Part shown: positions 11,501-19,995 of the stretch, piece by piece
Layout of the letters: each line of letters opens with the position of its first letter
Numbering within the stretch: the first letter of the stretch is position 1
IMG/VR virus record: IMGVR_UViG_3300028854_000017
DNA from: an uncultured virus (IMG/VR IMGVR_UViG_3300028854_000017)
Taxonomy: Duplodnaviria > Heunggongvirae > Uroviricota > Caudoviricetes
Length of the DNA: 20,000 nt
Reading direction: 5' to 3' (one strand)
Translations under genes and position numbers: made by a program
The notes under the pieces: model-generated
What the model was told of the DNA's origin: nothing
Database searches by the model: none
Seen by the model: only the letters and a program-made list of their open reading frames with translations

Positions 11501-12783
11501 GATAATCCATCTCCTAGTGAACCGTCCAATACTACGGTATCAACTTCTGTCGTGAATGTTGGAGGCGCTATAACCTGTCGCGTCTCTACAACTACCCCAT
11601 CTCCAACACTTGGTATGTTTAGATTGTTCTGATACCAAGGCGTAGGAGCAACGTTGCTGGCAGCCCAATGATCTCCATAGAACTGTTCATCAGGTTGTGA
11701 AAAGAACTTAACACTAGCGCTAATTTCTTGGTCGATGATACCTTCAATCGAAGCCAAGGTATCGTTCACCATCAGTAACACTTCATTAGCAACTTGAGTA
11801 ACGGTAAAGTATGGCGTAGTTCCAGCTGCACGATGACGTGCTACGATTTCCTCAAGATGTTGTGTAGTATATTGAAAATACGATGTATTGATGGGTACGT
11901 CGACAAAAACACCAAAATTAGTAAAGCTATACTGACCACCCAATCCATACTTTGCCGTGTCTGTCGGAGAACCCATCGTTGGGTTGTTCAAGAATCCATC
12001 GCCAACCATCAAATCGTCAGTATATTCGTTAGATGGAGTAACATTTATCAACGATGGCATACCGTCGCCAAGAAGTATGTTGGGGCTGTATTCAAGAATG
12101 GTAGTTTCGTATCCAATACCACGAGAGAGTATATTCTCGATAGCTAAATTGTTGATGCGTGGTTTTACGGTTTCCCACAGCAGACGGTTGGAGTATTCAT
12201 AATCTGGTTCAACAGTGTAGCCAATAATATTGTTATGTTGCGGGTCGCTCGTAGCATACATTGGTATCGACAATCTAGGGATGTCGAATATCGTTCCCCA
12301 ATAATCTAAGAAACCGTTTTGAGCTGTGGCGAATCCTAGCTGCTGAATGGCGAGGTCTACATCATTTTTAGCTGTTTCTAATATATATGCTAACGGTCTA
12401 AAAATAGCCCACAGCGTAGATGTAAAAATCTGTACGTTGTACCAGTCGTCTTCACTTAAAGCAAATGTACCTTCCAATAGAGCAATTGCACCCAAACCAC
12501 TGAAAGGAGTAGAAATATTTTGAACAGATATTCCAGACGTATTATTTAATTGATTGCACAGGTCTGCAATAGTTATGCTCTTAGCTGCATCATATGGATT
12601 ATTAAAATTTATTGTGACAACGGGGATAGTTTCTCCAACCGTGGTGATAGTTAACACGCGGTTGGAGATTACTAAGTTTGAATTTCCGCTCGCCTTCAAC
12701 TGAAAAGCAGGAACACTCTTAGGGTCTCGCGAGAAAACTCGGTTCAATCTATTTAAAAGATTACTAAATATCCCATTTGCCAT
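5545..12783 (-). CDS. Giant baseplate wedge protein: gpI/gp7-like N-terminus fused to multiple Ig-like domains (IPT/TIG, Big_2-like, PKD-like) and a PA14-like domain, 2412 aa
   Basis: The first ~330 aa contain TAQNGFLDYWGTIFDIPR...EPDYEYSNRLL...AIENIL...IVARHRAAGT, typical of P2 gpI-like wedge proteins. The gene lies downstream of baseplate J. The remainder has repeated Ig-like motifs and Pro-rich linkers. Confidence 0.8.
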   Translation of the reverse strand: MANGIFSNLLNRLNRVFSRDPKSVPAFQLKASGNSNLVISNRVLTITTVGETIPVVTINFNNPYDAAKSITIADLCNQLNNTSGISVQNISTPFSGLGAIALLEGTFALSEDDWYNVQIFTSTLWAIFRPLAYILETAKNDVDLAIQQLGFATAQNGFLDYWGTIFDIPRLSIPMYATSDPQHNNIIGYTVEPDYEYSNRLLWETVKPRINNLAIENILSRGIGYETTILEYSPNILLGDGMPSLINVTPSNEYTDDLMVGDGFLNNPTMGSPTDTAKYGLGGQYSFTNFGVFVDVPINTSYFQYTTQHLEEIVARHRAAGTTPYFTVTQVANEVLLMVNDTLASIEGIIDQEISASVKFFSQPDEQFYGDHWAASNVAPTPWYQNNLNIPSVGDGVVVETRQVIAPPTFTTEVDTVVLDGSLGDGLSGGFNTNLLVGDSSGTGDNVKFINILTSTTNPAPPPTYENDPVFLSYQRVSDDYLNPRVGETLSDDVMEKTLSSITGPVSSWAGTGSKIDVLSSTSVIITTPISVTAPTSMQGLSVNTLALMLQNIHNVPVVIRNIDAPYLGENWGTDYSDTRSIVIAYQDAAGNIYYQTINVPASPPPPATVLRILNPTAYIWSLDPTDPLSTTDYPDARPKVQVVLGGMVNICWEVTNSDAVGIYRYNNDTGVILEDDTTVGYSGSISYYPTVNTRYVIEATGNNGQIASASIVVSVVLVPITTDAPTITAIATPSVVELCESDQTQISYLVDFNDHVSEEQTVLWEYGSSSLNLTPLSSDPVGTAFANEVPIVSRVDDDTPVYGSWEGYGTSVLTFVPTLEFQNGVLDGISLFFEYAVEYGNHQLFFNNNAIAINPDIETYSQTMTVILPKPGSPTISSYDSYMVGSTEIVQYIVNYAITAVNAAGTRTIILPVYVQPVQQGAGNFAVNNISPTNIPEAVGPTISETVPVTLTGTGFSSKMEVWLRTPTRQAAESVSPGNPTLTQLVQAAVTNIDWVNGSITFIAPQFTFGSYPVRLVKLDCVEDVIAMNETFVLVYDESTYRFPPFVANCQPNYVCSGTGFTPTTIVLNGSNFRSGIVVYMVMNTGLVAKTTTFINENTISFLMDVDVAGIYNLVLINTDTSQGIATQMFQVQDSSIIPIVTQFGYTFPTIDGTTALYGQSFNLHWSCQNTSDVSFMSSDADVEAALSGIWGSEGSVSVVIPAEGVTITMYAHNICGNTLPDTITFTQAQSYHTERIAISPDPVYMNLKQPYKLSVLQTLVDDSTGDQIFVDITTDSDLTFSFVDFRGNPVTTGLATLAGFVLNPVQNGVVSVLASWKGYTDIAVVSIQLPYPVELQVNPMVIDYSQLGLQQQITVMAIYSDGSSLDVTSVCSYSNYSSSITVNDGLVTYITLGITTIRVSFFDNVYTQGILSTIIQVNGTDPCLSVYDIGVTPPFAFLPLSSTSVLSKIYLFGSVLTYYWGDSPHSGSVSAYIWQNVSDLYANGITRVLSDADGMTVGNSLLFDENPYGSISSPVQWTILNSSGIQIGTKNLFDPSLTGGGGYSNFNCCILAYLYVPAAGTYDIGAFYKDSIIWGIGGNCTWAGRGSITGTSGQTKTVIGGYPLLPAAQSGGEGGQQGNSQVPVTFNAAGIYPLEGDWDYWYHYGRTFQITSNGGTIAPIDSIPLNLSQTTKAVLTIDVNNVRTASIDGVSVLNEDLQLNWDYTTPETLSASHVYNIVVANHGTQLTLKASGNLLSVDAPVINKFTAYDADISMSAESSTSITVGYADGIGLCWNTSNAFSVSITDLSTMISTSVADAGTMLVMPTCSTSYRLYVVGYGGAVVISDITVNVSTAVSNEITILCKPAIVQLGQSSNVAYNAYSVEQVTLYAFSDSVVSVNGARPTQNQTTLLSNANNAQYTAFPTTNTMYRFNGKNNYSSFVAAGFVNVDAGAKFISTSISSASVNVGDPVTVSWQTTGAVNVTGDFVGGQNLPLGLASFVIYPDRTQDFKITATSSTGLTTTATIHISVNPQVLSPTCGGLDIPNVTSIYLDGNGNTPSTTEMDAIHVLEIYGSGFVGGRALTSTIVGAVRVVLSNQNGEVPLIDVVGIDTVTDTYIRCKIHVYEYTLADRYFVIVQNDIGVSFQQTALTSFTVDTYVPSFLDTIAVAGHSGDQYTLEIDSYNPIRDAGFSILVGGVEANILSISGFDGIGYPVLVVLSSATVTGIIIMTQNGFGALQKTFVPTPSPASPPTPPAAMSISYVSPALVDTLSTSSVFGNNFASTSTVYVGATACTTTYVSTTKLNFVVPSVTAGGYVVTVVDSVGTYGSVSWMGLTVFIPASTTPTQVPSSQTIGSLNGPLNISPNNNVISTVIPDQIVGAVILQPTVYVPQNPNTAIQTTSINGVDVSPVNADPINVGVFDVAAQSGGWE

Positions 12784-12786
12784 TTT

Positions 12787-13335
12787 TTACTCTGTTGTGG
12801 CGACTTCCAATCCAAGTGGTGCCAAAGGCAAATTCCACTCCGTTGCTACGACGAGCTTCTCTTCAACAGTCAAGCTACAATCCGGTGCAATCAACTCTGA
12901 GAACTTAACTGCACGTTGCTGTTCGTATGCTCGAGTTTCCTGAACATCTGATTCCTTAACAAGACCGAGACGATATAGAGTTTTGGCGAGAACGAAGATG
13001 TCGTTATCGCGCGATTGAATCATCTGCATGATATCGTTCAAATCTTCAATCTTAGCATTAGAAAAAGGCTGAGAACGCCGAAGGTCTCGAGCTTTCGCGT
13101 TCCTTTGTTCATGCTGTTGTAATTTCTTTTGCTCTTTGAGGCGCGCTATGAACTCGTCTTGAGTAATAATTTTCTTTGGCTGTTCATAAGTCTCAATAGG
13201 CGCTGTATCATTTTGCTGAAGAGTATCTTCGATGGATGGTTCGTTTTCGTTTTCCGCTTCCAGAACTACATCGGCGGCTGCCGCAGCGACTGCTTCCTGT
13301 ACTGTTTCTTGATCTACCACGTTTGGTTCCTCCAT
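12787..13335 (-). CDS. Hypothetical acidic / coiled-coil protein, 182 aa
   Basis: Fills the gap between J and the gpI-like gene (6 nt and 3 nt spacers). It has an E-rich N-terminus and a helical K/Q/R-rich middle (EFIARLKEQKKLQQHEQRNAKARDLRR). Confidence 0.7.
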   Translation of the reverse strand: MEEPNVVDQETVQEAVAAAAADVVLEAENENEPSIEDTLQQNDTAPIETYEQPKKIITQDEFIARLKEQKKLQQHEQRNAKARDLRRSQPFSNAKIEDLNDIMQMIQSRDNDIFVLAKTLYRLGLVKESDVQETRAYEQQRAVKFSELIAPDCSLTVEEKLVVATEWNLPLAPLGLEVATTE

Positions 13336-13341
13336 TGTGGG

Positions 13342-14529
13342 TTACGATATTGTTATTGTTCCGGCCTTTATAACTGTTTGAGAGTTACCTGGAATCACAT
13401 CTCCTGAAGGCGTTGATAATACGCAATTATACATTCCGTTTTGTCCCATAACCAGCGAAATAAGTTCGTTATAAATTAACGAATCTCCCGGTTTAAGTGT
13501 TGACATATACTGCACAACACTTGCCGCTATCGCCGCTTCGGCATTGCTATCTAGAATATACCCGGATAACCATGTTGTTTGTAGAACAAAGTTCTGAGGT
13601 TGTTCTGTGGCTGCAATGGTTGTGGCTACTATACCAGCGGCTTTATACCCCGGCAATCTGTTCCCATCCGAGTCTGTATACCCATATATGATGTTTTGAC
13701 AGTTTGCGACCAGGGCAGCAGAAGTAGAACCTAACCCGTTGTAAATGTATATATTTACGTGTCCGATTGGATTAGAACCGTCTAGTACGTATGGTTCTAC
13801 AGCTGTACAACTTTTAACTTGTTCTATGATGTTGCCATTGGAGTCTGTCACTACAGCTAAAGAAGCGCCATATTCTATAGCCCCCAAAGTGCCTCTAGAT
13901 AAACTTTGTAGATATGCCGCAAATCTTACTTTCTGACTAGCAGAACTTTCTTGATCAGCTCCATTCACAAACGGAAATTGGTTAGTAACGACATAGACCG
14001 CATCTGCAACCACCGGAAGATTGTCAACTGGCACAGTGATTGTATTAGCAACAGCGTTTCCAACGATTCCAGCTGTATTAGAGATAACCATAACCAATTG
14101 TGATGTTGCTCCAGCAGGCCATACCGTATCAGAAACTACACTATACGTAACACTAGCTATAGATGAAGCGGTTACAGTCGACCCTGTGGATGGAACCTGA
14201 AAGCGAGTTCCAGCTGGTATAACAATCGCCGATGTAGGAGCTATTGGGGTCGTTGTTCCTGCAACTACTAGTGATAATAGCAATTGACCTGATGAGGCGA
14301 TTGGAGGTAACGGTGGAAAATCAAAGCTATTATAGATTGCTGTATCGATGCCCTCGAGAATACCACGGAGCATCATATGATAGAACTGTTCAAGTTCTTC
14401 AGCAAAAGCTTCCAACATGGTACGAGTCTTCGAACCAATATTAAAATCGGTGAGCGTAGATGTGGATTGAGCTACCGATTGTATCAGGCTGGCTGTAATA
14501 TTGGCGAAATTACGGATGTAGAAAGCGAT
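13342..14529 (-). CDS. Baseplate J-like (gp6/gpJ) wedge protein, 395 aa using the proposed ATC start at 14529 (ORF track starts at 14418)
   Basis: Baseplate J motifs: TDFNIGSKTRTMLEAFAEELEQFY, IPAGTRF, AGIVGNAVANTIT, VTNQFPFVNGADQES, LSRGTLGAIEY, GYKAAGI, GMYNC...PSGDV. The in-frame upstream extension supplies the conserved N-terminus. Confidence 0.9.
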   Translation of the reverse strand: MAFYIRNFANITASLIQSVAQSTSTLTDFNIGSKTRTMLEAFAEELEQFYHMMLRGILEGIDTAIYNSFDFPPLPPIASSGQLLLSLVVAGTTTPIAPTSAIVIPAGTRFQVPSTGSTVTASSIASVTYSVVSDTVWPAGATSQLVMVISNTAGIVGNAVANTITVPVDNLPVVADAVYVVTNQFPFVNGADQESSASQKVRFAAYLQSLSRGTLGAIEYGASLAVVTDSNGNIIEQVKSCTAVEPYVLDGSNPIGHVNIYIYNGLGSTSAALVANCQNIIYGYTDSDGNRLPGYKAAGIVATTIAATEQPQNFVLQTTWLSGYILDSNAEAAIAASVVQYMSTLKPGDSLIYNELISLVMGQNGMYNCVLSTPSGDVIPGNSQTVIKAGTITIS

Positions 14530-14535
14530 ACGTCT

Positions 14536-14541
14536 ACCTCC
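14536..14541 (-). promoter_or_regulatory. Consensus Shine-Dalgarno GGAGGT for the baseplate J gene
   Basis: Minus strand reads TAA AAATAGCTG GGAGGT AGACGT ATC GCT TTC, placing the SD 6 nt before the in-frame ATC. Confidence 0.75.
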
Positions 14542-14550
14542 CAGCTATTT

Positions 14551-15864
14551 TTATACTGCTGGAATTACGAAATTGAAGTTCTGCGATATATTTAACAAAT
14601 CTATATTAGCGCTAGCAGACACTCGCAATGTATCAGCATATAGATTAACATTAACATTAGTTACAGACGAAACTCTAGGGTCTTGTGATAGAGTTCTATT
14701 TATTTCATATGCAGCAAAAACCAAAAGAGAATCGTTATCTATCGAACCGACATAATCCAGCAGTCTATCTCCATATTCAGGATGATAGTGAAGCGAGCTA
14801 GTTTCTGTGGTCAATCTGTGTGCAAGCGCTTGATTAAGATTCATCATGCCTGAAAACGACAATAAATCTCCGTTCGTATCTGCCCATAGCTGACCATAAG
14901 CGTCTAATGCAATATCTTCCCCAAGAATGTCATAAAGACTATTCGCATTATAATTGTTGTTTTGGATATTCGATTGGCTCGAGCTGTTCGATGGTATGAG
15001 AATATAGCTACCTGGGCTGACGACTCTAGACGTAATATTTATCGCTGCAGATAACACGTTTACAACGAACCCAGATTCGTAAGTATTTTGAAGCGGCGAT
15101 GATAAAACCACTATCGATTGAGTGTTGTCCCCAGTTACCGAGTCTACCGTCACCAAATCTGAAAGAACCTGTGATTGCCCATTCGTTAACGGACTTGTCA
15201 AATTGAAATATAGTGTAGACCCAATGGATAACAATTGGCTCAATCCATTGATATAGATTGTTGAAGTTCCAGCCTTAGCCTTTTGGGTCAGATAAACATT
15301 GAAATTTGTTTGTCCCATCAAAACGTTCTGGTCGCTGCTGATATATGGATATGTCAATTTGTTCATATCCGCTATGACTTCCCAATTTGAAGCATCTCCG
15401 GTCATTTGAGCTGCTATACCCTGCAAATTATCAAAAGGTTTAATTTGGTAAACTTGCATGTTGTTTATCGTCATCGAGTACGGGTCTGTGGTTGTAGCTG
15501 TGAATTGACTGGCGTTTGGAATCTGTATCGCATTAACCATACTTTGTATATCTGCCAAAGATATCAAGCCTTGTTGATCAATGGTAAATATCACAGAATT
15601 AGATGGACCGTTATTCGGATCGTCTATATATATTGTCGCTCCTCCTAACGAGAAAGTAGCGAAATAAGATGGTAAAACATAAGCATATAGGTAAGTATTG
15701 TCTACATAAACTGTGGCATGATTTCCGTTTCCGTCCAAAAGAACTTCACCGCCGAACACAATATCACTATCACCTGTAAAGTTGGTTCCTCGCACAGCGA
15801 ACAAGAACTGTGAGCCTCCAGCAACCACGTAATCAGGTGTTATCGATGCTATGACGGGAACCAT
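14551..15864 (-). CDS. Baseplate wedge protein: IPT/TIG + interrupted LysM-like + gp25/gpW-like (sheath initiator) domains, 437 aa
   Basis: N-terminal PVIASITPDYVVAGGSQFLFAVRGTNF...PSNSVIFTI is IPT/TIG-like. YQIKPFDNLQGIAAQMTGDASNWEVIADMNKL is LysM-like. C-terminal GDL...SG..NLNQALAHRLTTE...HPEYG...LSQDPRVSSV is gp25-like. The gene is immediately upstream of J. Confidence 0.85.
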   Translation of the reverse strand: MVPVIASITPDYVVAGGSQFLFAVRGTNFTGDSDIVFGGEVLLDGNGNHATVYVDNTYLYAYVLPSYFATFSLGGATIYIDDPNNGPSNSVIFTIDQQGLISLADIQSMVNAIQIPNASQFTATTTDPYSMTINNMQVYQIKPFDNLQGIAAQMTGDASNWEVIADMNKLTYPYISSDQNVLMGQTNFNVYLTQKAKAGTSTIYINGLSQLLSIGSTLYFNLTSPLTNGQSQVLSDLVTVDSVTGDNTQSIVVLSSPLQNTYESGFVVNVLSAAINITSRVVSPGSYILIPSNSSSQSNIQNNNYNANSLYDILGEDIALDAYGQLWADTNGDLLSFSGMMNLNQALAHRLTTETSSLHYHPEYGDRLLDYVGSIDNDSLLVFAAYEINRTLSQDPRVSSVTNVNVNLYADTLRVSASANIDLLNISQNFNFVIPAV

Positions 15865-15865
15865 A

Positions 15866-17218
15866 TTACCTACCTATAAGTTTCAAAATCATATCAACCG
15901 AATTCATATCTTTAGCTGCTGTCGTATTAGCAACGCTAATCTGGTTAACTGCGGTTTGTATGCCGCTTGTATTGGCTGCAGCTGTTACAGCTATAAATGT
16001 ATTAGGCGTGTCTTCTGCTATTGAGTATATTGCTCCAACATATGGAGGAACAGGGCCAGAACTTACAAGATTTGTTGGTACAGTTATCCCCATCGGAGTA
16101 ACCTGTGTAGCGAGTGTAGACGCATCTTTCATAAATTGTGTTGTGTCTTTCCACGCCAATTGAGCTGTGACACTCATCGTATTGAATGATGTTCCATTTT
16201 GAGCAATCATCATCGCTCCGCCAATAGAATTAAACGTTTCTTGAGCCATCATCGTTAAACCAGGCGTACTAGATGGATTGACAACCGATAACAAACCGCC
16301 TATACCACCACCCGCGTATGCTACTTGATTAAGGACTTCCATAGCAACCATCACATCTGAAGCAACAGCTGCAATAGTAGATAGAATGCTTCCCAATTTT
16401 GACCAGAACCCACTAGGAGACGATGAATTATTCTTATTGATCGTAACTGGAGGCCTCGAGTTGTTGGAGTTTACAACTTGAAAATCAGTGTTTTCTTGTG
16501 TAACTATAAACGACGCTTCATACATGTGAAGCAGCGGATTTGATTTGTTTCTGAGCAACTTGAACTGTTCTGGAACAACGTAATGAACCATTCTGTGTAA
16601 TTTGTCGATGATATGTACTGTTAATTTTTGCTCCAACTGAGATTGAGGAAAGTTGGCAGAGTTTGTGTCTCTCAAAAGGAAGTAATTATCAAACAAATTT
16701 TTCAGAGCCATCACGTTCGCATATCCGTCTTGGGCTTGAGATGTGGACCCACTAAAATTGTGCGTTCTCCATCCAGTATTCCCACGTAACGTAAGCCTCA
16801 CAATTGTTTTACCCCACACATCTACGAATGCACCGCTCATTGTTTGGGTGGCGTTTACACGATATGGAGTATCTAATACGAAATCATCAGGATTGATATT
16901 CATCGTCACAGTTGTTGGAACCGTGGTTCCACTCAAGCTATTCGACAACATCACGGTGAAATGATTGACGTGGCCTAACCACGATACAACATTGACAGGG
17001 GATGTACTATTCGTCCACCCATTTTCAGAAACGTTGGCATTGGCTAAAGCGGATGAATAAGGAGGCCCGAGAGTTGGAGTTGTTGCAGCTGATAACCCAG
17101 AATACGTTGAATCCGTGGTAAATGGCGCTGGTGTTGTGGTTACCGCTGCGGAGCTCAGCGGCGTTCCATACGTGGATGCCGTCAATGGTGTGCCACTACC
17201 AGCACCAGTAATAGACAT
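15866..17218 (-). CDS. Probable tube-fold baseplate / tail-tube initiator protein, 450 aa
   Basis: The central MNINPDDF...RVNATQTMSGAFVDVWG...LTLRGNTGWR...F.LLRNKSNPLLHMYEASF resembles tube-fold baseplate proteins. It lies between the spike and gp25-like genes. Confidence 0.6.
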   Translation of the reverse strand: MSITGAGSGTPLTASTYGTPLSSAAVTTTPAPFTTDSTYSGLSAATTPTLGPPYSSALANANVSENGWTNSTSPVNVVSWLGHVNHFTVMLSNSLSGTTVPTTVTMNINPDDFVLDTPYRVNATQTMSGAFVDVWGKTIVRLTLRGNTGWRTHNFSGSTSQAQDGYANVMALKNLFDNYFLLRDTNSANFPQSQLEQKLTVHIIDKLHRMVHYVVPEQFKLLRNKSNPLLHMYEASFIVTQENTDFQVVNSNNSRPPVTINKNNSSSPSGFWSKLGSILSTIAAVASDVMVAMEVLNQVAYAGGGIGGLLSVVNPSSTPGLTMMAQETFNSIGGAMMIAQNGTSFNTMSVTAQLAWKDTTQFMKDASTLATQVTPMGITVPTNLVSSGPVPPYVGAIYSIAEDTPNTFIAVTAAANTSGIQTAVNQISVANTTAAKDMNSVDMILKLIGR

Positions 17219-18348: not shown

Positions 18349-19995
18349 TTAATATCCGTAATCAGCATAACGTGGATCGTCCTGCATTCTGTCTAAATGA
18401 GCTTCCCCACGAGTCAATGTTAGCATCGTCAACCACGATTCCATAGGAGTGAAATTCTGATGCACTTCTTCCACATAAAAAACGTGAACCATCGTGTCGA
18501 GTCGTTCATCCCAAAACGCTACAAACATTCCAGCTCGTATATCTTCTCGCCCACGAATAACCATCGAACCTTGTTCTAATTGCGAATTGTGTTCAAAGGC
18601 ATTAAACAAAGTCATTGCCAGTTGCTGCCCAACCTTAAACATGTCGGAAGTAGTTATATTCGAACCAAAATCGCTTCTGTAAAAAGCATTAGTATCTTCC
18701 AAACTACCAATTGTTTTTGGGTCCACTGATAGCAACTTGCTAGTGATTAGCAATTTTCTAAAACCAAACAACTCCATCCTAGAATATTCAAGCTTTGTCG
18801 ATTGAGGAAGAGTCACGCCAGTATCAGTAAACGAACTAGTATCAACCGTAAAATGTGGATTAAGGTTAGTAAGCTGCCCCATCGCTTGAGATTCGAATGA
18901 TTCTCCAATCCCACTATTCGTAGCATTAACCATGATATAGTTCCACACTTCTTGGTCGCTGCGACCTAAGTTATAGTTTACTATTTCACTTTGATCTATG
19001 AATATTGGCAATCCCTTCGCACATGCATCTATACTCCGTGAACCCAGTGGGGTGTACGTAGGGCCAGTTCCACTAAAACTGGTGGTTCCTACCCATTCCC
19101 TGTCTCTATCTCGCCAAGGGGTTGGTCTGAACACTAAGTAAGTGCCATCTGGAGCATCATCTGTGAATATCTCGATAAACGGCTTTCCAGTGAATTCGTT
19201 AAACAAGTCCGACACAGACATTTCCGTCGAGGCTATTGATGGGTCAACTACTCTGAGGCTATAACTCGCTACGTCATCACCTATCCCTTGGGCAGCTCTA
19301 TTTCCGTCTACACCATCCACATCAACATCTAATTCAAAAGGTGCTGCAATATTAACTGAGGATATTATGTCGTTGCTTTCGGAGCCGTTAGCTGAAGATG
19401 AATTACTCTGCGTCTGATTCCTGTTAGTGGTTGTTTTTAGAATGTTCTGAAAAGTTGGCGTGACAACTTCATTCCACACCATTGTTACTATCTTGGATGG
19501 GGTGCAATTACCCTGCAAAATATCGATTCCATATCCAAAAAACAACGGCGATGTAGTCCCAGAAGCAGCGAACACTTGACTCGGGTCTAAAGCATAAACA
19601 TAATGTATTACAGCATTTTTAATAGCTTTTCCATAATTCTCTCCAGAAATAACAATCGATCTAACAGGCTTTCCGCTAGACATATCTAGCGATTTAGATA
19701 TGGTGGTTACGAAACCCCTCATGATGGTTGTATAATCTTTCGATTCACGCTTCATCCTTATTTCACAATAAACCATCGGTTCTATCATATCGTATAGCGT
19801 TGCACCGTTAGTATCATCTCTTGGAACAAGGGTGATTCTAAAACTATTCGTCAAATCCTTACACGTAGCCTGCGTCTCTATTTTAGTCACGTAACCAAGC
19901 TGGTTGAATCCAGTGCTAAATGATTGTATTCCTGATGGAAGACCGAGAATTACATCGTATTTTGGATTGAACGTGTTGATATTGCTTGTGCTCAT
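18349..19995 (-). CDS. Baseplate hub protein (gp27/gpD-like), 548 aa
   Basis: F.ITL.P...IMRGFVTTISKS...I.ISGENYGK, PFIEIFTDD...LVFRPTPW, LGRSDQEVWN, and C-terminal GSMVIRGREDIRAG...FYVEEVHQNF...WLTMLTLTRG are hub-family motifs. A probable upstream stop TAA lies at 20000-19998. Confidence 0.85.
   Translation of the reverse strand: MSTSNINTFNPKYDVILGLPSGIQSFSTGFNQLGYVTKIETQATCKDLTNSFRITLVPRDDTNGATLYDMIEPMVYCEIRMKRESKDYTTIMRGFVTTISKSLDMSSGKPVRSIVISGENYGKAIKNAVIHYVYALDPSQVFAASGTTSPLFFGYGIDILQGNCTPSKIVTMVWNEVVTPTFQNILKTTTNRNQTQSNSSSANGSESNDIISSVNIAAPFELDVDVDGVDGNRAAQGIGDDVASYSLRVVDPSIASTEMSVSDLFNEFTGKPFIEIFTDDAPDGTYLVFRPTPWRDRDREWVGTTSFSGTGPTYTPLGSRSIDACAKGLPIFIDQSEIVNYNLGRSDQEVWNYIMVNATNSGIGESFESQAMGQLTNLNPHFTVDTSSFTDTGVTLPQSTKLEYSRMELFGFRKLLITSKLLSVDPKTIGSLEDTNAFYRSDFGSNITTSDMFKVGQQLAMTLFNAFEHNSQLEQGSMVIRGREDIRAGMFVAFWDERLDTMVHVFYVEEVHQNFTPMESWLTMLTLTRGEAHLDRMQDDPRYADYGY

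Follow-up and report, generated by a model that had tools for sequence, protein, structure and literature searches.

An ATC codon behind a strong Shine-Dalgarno motif as the predicted start of a baseplate wedge gene in an uncultured peat phage

The wedge gene and its start region

In the window, i.e., the whole 20,000-nucleotide stretch of uncultured-virus DNA that was analysed, a baseplate wedge gene follows a sheath-initiator gene on the minus strand. The features of its start region, in window coordinates and with the Shine-Dalgarno motif abbreviated as SD, are as follows.

14551..15864, minus strand: sheath-initiator (gp25-like) gene upstream of the wedge gene (PF10934, phrog_975, phrog_120)
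14542..14547, minus strand: in-frame TAG, then CTG without SD (sequence; SD energy at CTG 0)
14536..14541, minus strand: SD motif GGAGGT, 6 nt 5' of the ATC (sequence and predicted duplex energy)
14527..14529, minus strand: ATC, the predicted start codon of the wedge gene (alignment of homologues; same base in the assemblies L001, X11 and X13)
14419..14529, minus strand: 37 codons missed by gene callers, which encode N-terminal helix 1 (residues 8-22), the TDFNxGS turn and the beginning of the long helix 2
14416..14418, minus strand: internal ATG (Met38), the start in automatic gene calls (SD energy -2.7; Met in 10 of 20 close homologues)
13342..14529, minus strand: baseplate wedge gene (Baseplate_J / T4 gp6 / phage 812 gp116-like), 395 codons (profiles, fold, single copy)

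The sheath-initiator open reading frame (ORF) ends with TAA at 14553-14551, after which come AAA, TAG (14547-14545), CTG (14544-14542), GGAGGT (14541-14536), 6 bases and the ATC (14529-14527), with the TAG and the CTG both lying in the wedge frame. Between the upstream stop and the first canonical codon, the ATG at 14418, there are 132 nt with 42 open codons and with no ATG, GTG or TTG. A sequence-only reading made earlier had described this gap as open in the J frame and bounded by the TAG, and all of its coordinates are confirmed in the sequence. From the TAG the wedge frame is open down to the stop at 13342, with the translation LGGRR-IAFYIRNFANITASLIQSVAQSTSTLTDFNIGSKTRT-MLEAF, which beside the ATC reads LGGRR-IAFYIRNF...SKTRT-MLEAF, and the predicted peptides of the full-length N-terminus are (M)AFYIR and NFANITASLIQSVAQSTSTLTDFNIGSK. 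It is noted that the sheath-initiator and wedge genes share one reading frame over 15864-13342 (minus strand), parted by TAA-AAA-TAG, and that a fusion of the two is blocked because two different stops lie between them. The wedge gene has its own 21-nt spacer, while most of the baseplate genes follow the gene before them at a distance of 1-6 nt. The RNA structure at the start site is not unusual (z -0.51 and 0.73), and promoter-like (9 vs 9.9) and terminator-like matches (2 vs 1.8) occur at chance level.

The wedge product scores 53.1 bits against PF04865 (Baseplate_J; cut-off 21.1) and matches phrog_6 over residues 4-394 (E 2.7e-33), and a profile of 66 relatives matches chain 9euf_C of phage 812 over positions 5-371 (E 5.2e-63). 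The AlphaFold2 model of the protein (pLDDT 87.7) has helices at residues 8-22 and 34-69, and its top Foldseek matches are all wedge proteins, with 9euf_C coming first (E 4.5e-26, TM 0.55/0.62). Upstream of the gene lie the PF23980 and PF10934/phrog_975 matches, the latter being the sheath initiator (PF10934 E 4.1e-06, below its curated cut-off; phrog_975 and phrog_120 also matched), and further upstream are the sheath, tube and chaperone genes. The family profile, the fold and the position in the contractile-tail module after the tube and sheath initiators thus all place the product among the wedge proteins. By tblastn and profile search no second wedge-like gene was found in the 88,968-nt contig in which the window sits, leaving one J gene only. 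The protein is like gp116 of phage 812 (PDB 9euf chain C) in having N-terminal helices followed by wing, trifurcation and dimerization domains and in being encoded after the sheath initiator, whereas it differs in sequence (23% identity), in that the J gene is followed here by a 182-aa ORF of no known family, and in belonging to an uncultured peat virus of ~98 kb.

Downstream in the window, the acidic 182-aa ORF (13335-12787, minus strand) lies between the wedge gene and a 2412-aa putative arm-scaffold gene and has no Pfam or PHROG match; its first ATG is without SD and overlaps a GGAGG that could serve the GTG at 13320 (-9.3). The 2412-aa protein (12783-5545, minus strand), in which Pfam finds C-terminal TIG domains only, stands at the position of the wedge partner and is by its gene order a putative gp7/arm-scaffold partner of the wedge protein in a 2:1 heterotrimer; the wedge part of the 812 arm scaffold has 176 residues, and the protein here exceeds it by far. 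In the tail-fibre region, a 1195-aa protein with NHL beta-propeller repeats (4380-793, minus strand) is a candidate receptor-binding protein.

Conservation of the N-terminus and identity of the ATC base

Among 5.8 billion proteins searched, 20 close relatives forming one clade were found, 49-57% identical to the wedge protein, and a re-search with the clade alignment added none. In 16 of the 20, which start with M-A-F, Met1 falls on the ATC codon, with one of the others beginning one residue earlier and three one residue later. Over residues 2-37 the mean identity to the 20 relatives is 63%, against 52% for the rest of the protein, and the resulting ratio of 1.23 is inside the range of 1.17-1.35 that the relatives give among themselves. 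Moreover, within the 36 extra codons all of the 12 columns that are invariant among the relatives are kept here, and 147 of the 150 best wider-family representatives keep the N-terminal helix region, with the other three starting further in. The extension is thus conserved coding sequence, as had been claimed from the sequence alone.

Because of the homologue alignment (Met1 of all 20 at or within one residue of the ATC), the conserved extension, the SD, the single copy of the gene and the weakness of the other candidate codons, the ATC at 14529, which the sequence-only reading had taken to be the true start, is almost certainly the codon at which the wedge gene would initiate. If initiation occurred at the ATG at 14418, it would be expected that the first helix and the TDFNxGS turn were deleted; only 10 of the 20 close homologues have Met in this column and the SD energy there is -2.7, so that this ATG is unlikely as the main start. 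Another route to the full N-terminus is initiation at the CTG at 14544, or a readthrough fusing the sheath-initiator gene to J. The CTG is in frame 7 nt past the upstream stop, i.e., within reinitiation distance, and the two genes share their frame, which would suit such a route; but the CTG is without SD (energy 0) and would add GGRRI before the conserved start, the TAA and the TAG part the genes, and the homologues begin at the ATC position in a protein search that reached up to 741 aa. We thus regard this route as very improbable.

The ATC is also present in other assemblies. The separate viral assembly L001 carries the same ATC and agrees with the window at all but 2 of 7185 positions, and in each of the runs X11 and X13 a contig spans 13300-15900 in one piece with 0 differences and with the ATC (word depth of the matching contigs 18.6 in X11 and 17.3 in X13). 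All three members of the 90% protein cluster are called short (358, 358 and 249 aa), and one of these recurs on 25 contigs from three sources, the longest being 98,281 nt. An error at 14527 could be argued for in that the evidence consists of contigs rather than raw reads, that this DNA may itself come from X11 or X13, as their flags indicate, and that the 4 of the 24 listed runs compared contig by contig may, like all the runs, stem from one campaign. With the ATC carried by L001, X11 and X13 and standing at the very end of a contig of the RNA run X17, and with the short calls recurring as above, a sequencing or assembly error is unlikely, and we give it hardly any probability. Of the two alternatives named in the sequence-only reading, an ATG>ATC mutation or a sequencing error, it is the point change in the lineage that is favoured. 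With 2 differences in 7185 nt the sampled population is near-clonal, and the ATC allele looks fixed in it. Fourteen DNA runs, all peat metagenomes, contain 0.99 of the sampled words from 12000-17000.

Contigs from two RNA runs, X15 and X17, match parts of the region, coverage that is no proof of transcription; of the other RNA runs, four have smaller shares of it and two have none. The X17 contig (record 8) matches 14312-14529 without difference and ends exactly at the A of the ATC, probably by chance or at a graph branch, since contigs cannot show an RNA start. In the X15 piece that crosses the ATC there is one difference at an unlisted position, and this piece was left out of the ATC count.

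Gene callers accept ATG, GTG and TTG as starts, and the public calls of the wedge protein of this phage are of 358 aa, from the ATG at 14418. Callers limited to these three codons thus cut the first helix off an essential virion protein, on at least 25 contigs, which makes the gene a clean example of this problem for phage structural genes.

Shine-Dalgarno strength and start codons among relatives

The SD:anti-SD energies were calculated with an anti-SD of the E. coli type, which may not be that of the host, and serve here as relative ranks only: on this scale GGAGGT before the ATC has a predicted energy of -11.6 kcal/mol, the strongest of the 13 candidate starts scored in the window (the others 0 to -9.6). 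The earlier claim that this is the best SD in the window, 6 nt before the ATC, is borne out in this way; the start at 19995, which falls outside the 13-start scoring, has -3.3 in the genome-wide scoring. Among the 97 minus-strand genes (median -6.0), the best canonical starts of two, the tail tube and the tail chaperone, are at least as strong as -11.6, and among the internal in-frame ATA, ATC and ATT codons of the genome this value is reached at 2 of 1460 (0.14%). In absolute terms the wedge SD is moderate (6-7 nt) and not "extended". The site thus has an AUH codon at the homologous start, no canonical codon nearby and a strong SD, as expected of an SD-led non-canonical start.

A genome-wide habit of ATH starts was considered and rejected. 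When 4105 near-cognate codons were tested, 42 passed the print filter, among which the wedge ATC was the sole coding-strand case, defined as lying ahead of the first canonical codon and with no canonical codon beside the near-cognate one; the chance background consisted of 11 such hits on the non-coding strand, in short frames, at -8.1 to -10.7.

The sequence-only reading had named close relatives with ATG as the sign of a private mutation, and at the level sampled this is what is found. The 20 relatives (49-57% identical), known as proteins only, are all called with Met at the ATC position and, as callers accept ATG, GTG and TTG, therefore have a canonical start there. The same reading had proposed to look for a recurrence of ATC, ATT or ATA in the DNA of related J genes: all 55 distant J genes with DNA are assigned canonical starts (ATG 46, GTG 7, TTG 2). 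These 55 remain from 66 loci (L002-L067) after removal of 2 of this phage, 8 duplicates and 1 cut by a contig end, and their starts were assigned by rule as the canonical codon nearest to the expected position. Of the 46 distant ATG starts (median SD energy -6.3), one reaches the -11.6 of the wedge gene, and the two TTG starts have the strongest SDs, -14.9 and -15.2, which is in line with compensation, though confounded by host. N-terminally short database proteins were tried as a marker of non-canonical starts and given up: the loci L025 and L033, near two such proteins, have ATG or GTG at the full-length position.

A scan of viral contigs with a degenerate pattern for ATY-started J genes returned this phage only. 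Four queries were used to look for the DNA of close relatives (the J protein, the alignment of the close clade, the sheath initiator and the tail tube), and they yielded only this phage or J genes with best segments of 24-50% identity; cultured phages reach at most 36% identity. The tree places the query on a long terminal branch (0.46) that shares an unresolved fork with P0003. No relative with an identity above 57% and below about 99.7% was found, so that the ATC could be old or recent, and the strong SD may or may not have arisen with it. Judged from these genes, the ATC codon is not conserved and, at the level sampled, is confined to one lineage.

These data bear on the proposal, also made in the sequence-only reading, that the strong SD and the weak codon are a maintained device for tuning or for sensing IF3. 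Under this proposal the AUC and the strong SD are kept in order to hold wedge synthesis, and with it the number of baseplates and virions, at a low level that responds to host IF3, ppGpp or temperature. It would agree with the wedge SD ranking in the top three of the genome despite the gene being low-copy, its equals being the abundant tail tube and the tail chaperone, and with the 21-nt spacer where most baseplate genes abut. It would agree also with the discrimination of IF3 against AUU, AUC and AUA codons (PMC4611024) and with the harder effect of nutrient limitation and ppGpp on non-AUG mRNAs in vitro (PMC5499595). However, with Met in 20 of 20 close relatives and canonical codons in 55 of 55 distant genes, conservation does not support a maintained device; moreover, in the viral contigs scanned ATY-started J genes were seen in this phage only, the design recurs at no further gene of the genome, and the structure at the site is not unusual. 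We therefore consider the proposal rather unlikely. We regard as unlikely, too, its more specific form, in which the AUC with an SD of capsid-gene strength would be a selected valve on the baseplate-nucleating wedge subunit, and in which the discrimination of IF3, ppGpp and cold against AUC would let the translational state of a slow-growing peat host determine how many tails, and with them infectious particles, are made, with no phage-encoded regulator. If the weak start were nevertheless selected, virion output would be linked to the IF3 or stringent-response state of the host.

A probable compensated weak start, known systems and the phage

The explanation that we consider likely is that the AUC is a lineage-restricted weak start, compensated by its SD and giving a low but adequate output of the wedge protein. 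In this explanation, an ordinary start, most simply ATG, would have become ATC by a point change in this lineage. The strong, well-spaced SD in the dedicated 21-nt spacer would hold the 30S subunit independently of the upstream gene, and the initiator tRNA would decode AUC with a few per cent of the efficiency of AUG, so that the full-length Met-Ala-Phe-Tyr... protein is made. The product of a strong SD and a weak codon would then land in the low range of the neighbours, which have ATG with weak SDs, and the change of start would be tolerated, near-neutral and compensated, because ~12 wedge copies per virion suffice and because the neighbours have weak SDs. The initiation at AUC, its rate, the order of the changes in SD and codon and the neutrality are all what we infer from the comparisons above.

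The wedge of phage 812 is made up of two gp116 and the N-terminus of the arm scaffold, with N-terminal helices mediating contacts in the module (PMC13433997); six wedges with two copies each make ~12 wedge copies per virion, far fewer than of capsid or sheath. As for the codon, AUC behind a strong ribosome-binding site in E. coli initiates at 1-2% of AUG, with N-terminal Met (10.1101/063800); AUC gives 5% for a gene of phage HB-3 and AUA ~15% in a mutant of T4 rIIB (PMC5499595); and AUU or AUA behind extended SDs in S. aureus gives ~10%, up to 30% (PMC13009471). Weak starts tend to be paired with stronger SDs, in a treatment (PMC5622118) that deals with GUG and UUG only. By a rough hand estimate with an exponent of 0.45 per kcal/mol, an illustration and not a computed result, the SD would give ~12-fold over the genome median, and the net output would then be roughly 0.1- to 1.2-fold for a codon efficiency of 1-10%. 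A point counter to the compensated start is that two copies of the wedge protein are required for each copy of the sheath initiator and the arm scaffold, and this doubled demand may be hard to meet at an efficiency of 1-2%. The moderate absolute strength of the SD, which two distant TTG-started J genes exceed, also speaks against it. If the compensated start is right, the gene points to a strong SD allowing an essential baseplate subunit, required in fixed stoichiometry, to be translated from a start codon of 1-10% efficiency, and it offers a simple natural test case for compensation between start codon and SD beyond GUG and UUG.

It is noted that SD-led AUH starts are of a known kind, and that the wedge case is a lineage-specific instance and not a new mechanism. 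Like infC and pcnB (AUU) of E. coli and infC, ccpN, citZ (AUA) and cvfC1 (AUU) of S. aureus, as described in 10.1101/063800 and PMC13009471, the wedge gene has an AUH codon placed optimally behind a strong SD with no canonical alternative. The infC, ccpN and cvfC1 starts are conserved across species and lie on regulators, whereas the wedge ATC is in one phage lineage and on a structural protein, and initiation was measured for starts of the infC, pcnB and ccpN type, whereas the wedge start is predicted here from sequence. The nearest parallel in lineage restriction is the citZ AUA, reported only for the NCTC 8325 lineage (PMC13009471). Phage genes on AUH codons, as here, are the truncated murein hydrolase of HB-3 (AUC, ~5%) and the T4 rIIB mutant (AUA, 15%), which are cloned or mutant constructs (PMC5499595), whereas the wedge ATC is a natural and apparently fixed allele of an essential virion gene. 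In a conserved regulatory start such as that of infC or ccpN the codon is kept among relatives, whereas the wedge ATC is not kept in the 20 close and 55 distant genes. T4 gene 26 (baseplate hub) is said to have an internal AUU start that gives a second, shorter product beside the AUG-started one; it would thus be like the wedge gene in having a near-cognate start on a baseplate gene and differ in the added shorter product. In the literature searched, whose scope left out most subscription papers, no relevant report on AUC/ATC starts of phage baseplate, wedge or virion genes was found.

The remaining alternative is that the ATC is a recent loss of function or a strong hypomorph, with little full-length wedge protein or a truncated form made from the ATG at 14418, and that the element is defective or helped by another phage. 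Because of the long terminal branch (0.46) and the near-clonal sample, conservation would look alike after a recent harmful mutation and after a tolerated one, and the branch and the population give no age. An IS200/IS605 element after the major capsid gene and coverage by RNA runs that is no proof of transcription also fit with such a loss. In addition, the longest contig carrying the wedge protein, of 98,281 nt, puts ~9 kb of the genome outside the 88,968-nt contig, where lysogeny genes or a second wedge copy could lie. On the other hand, no integrase was found among the 64 proteins scanned outside the window, and the 97 minus-strand ORFs cover 87,546 nt (overlaps counted) with no sign of decay; the short call recurs on 25 contigs and 14 DNA runs contain the region; and the ATG at 14418 is almost without SD, and initiation there would lose the first helix, which 147 of 150 representatives retain. 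We take this alternative to be quite improbable. The 88,968-nt contig is that of a myovirus with terminase, portal, capsid, sheath, tube, DNA polymerase, primase and helicases, and from its head, tail and replication genes and from the 14 DNA runs with 0.99 of the words, the phage looks intact and persistent. The host search gave distant matches only (best plasmid matches of TnpB ~43%, capsid 45%), and the major capsid protein is at most 45% identical to those of cultured phages.

Finally, we note some further observations on the genome. The IS200/IS605-type TnpA and TnpB pair (genome 42069-43638; L070:10473-12039, minus strand) comes right after the major capsid gene, with several HNH/endonuclease VII genes around it. 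Two adjacent 64-aa ORFs (genome 40849-41284; L070:9250-9685, minus strand) have the same SD context and similar N-termini (M.L.LDDSGG / MTVTVNNDGG ... AELIKQVNQL / TQLLIQVNQL), apparently representing, from their sequences, a small tandem duplication between the head and neck genes. Three very large ORFs without PHROG match (1345, 1128 and 1284 aa; genome 51762-66420, L071) flank the 899-aa portal gene, and a single tRNA-Ser(TGA) gene is located at genome 75753-75842 (L072:4754-4843, minus strand).
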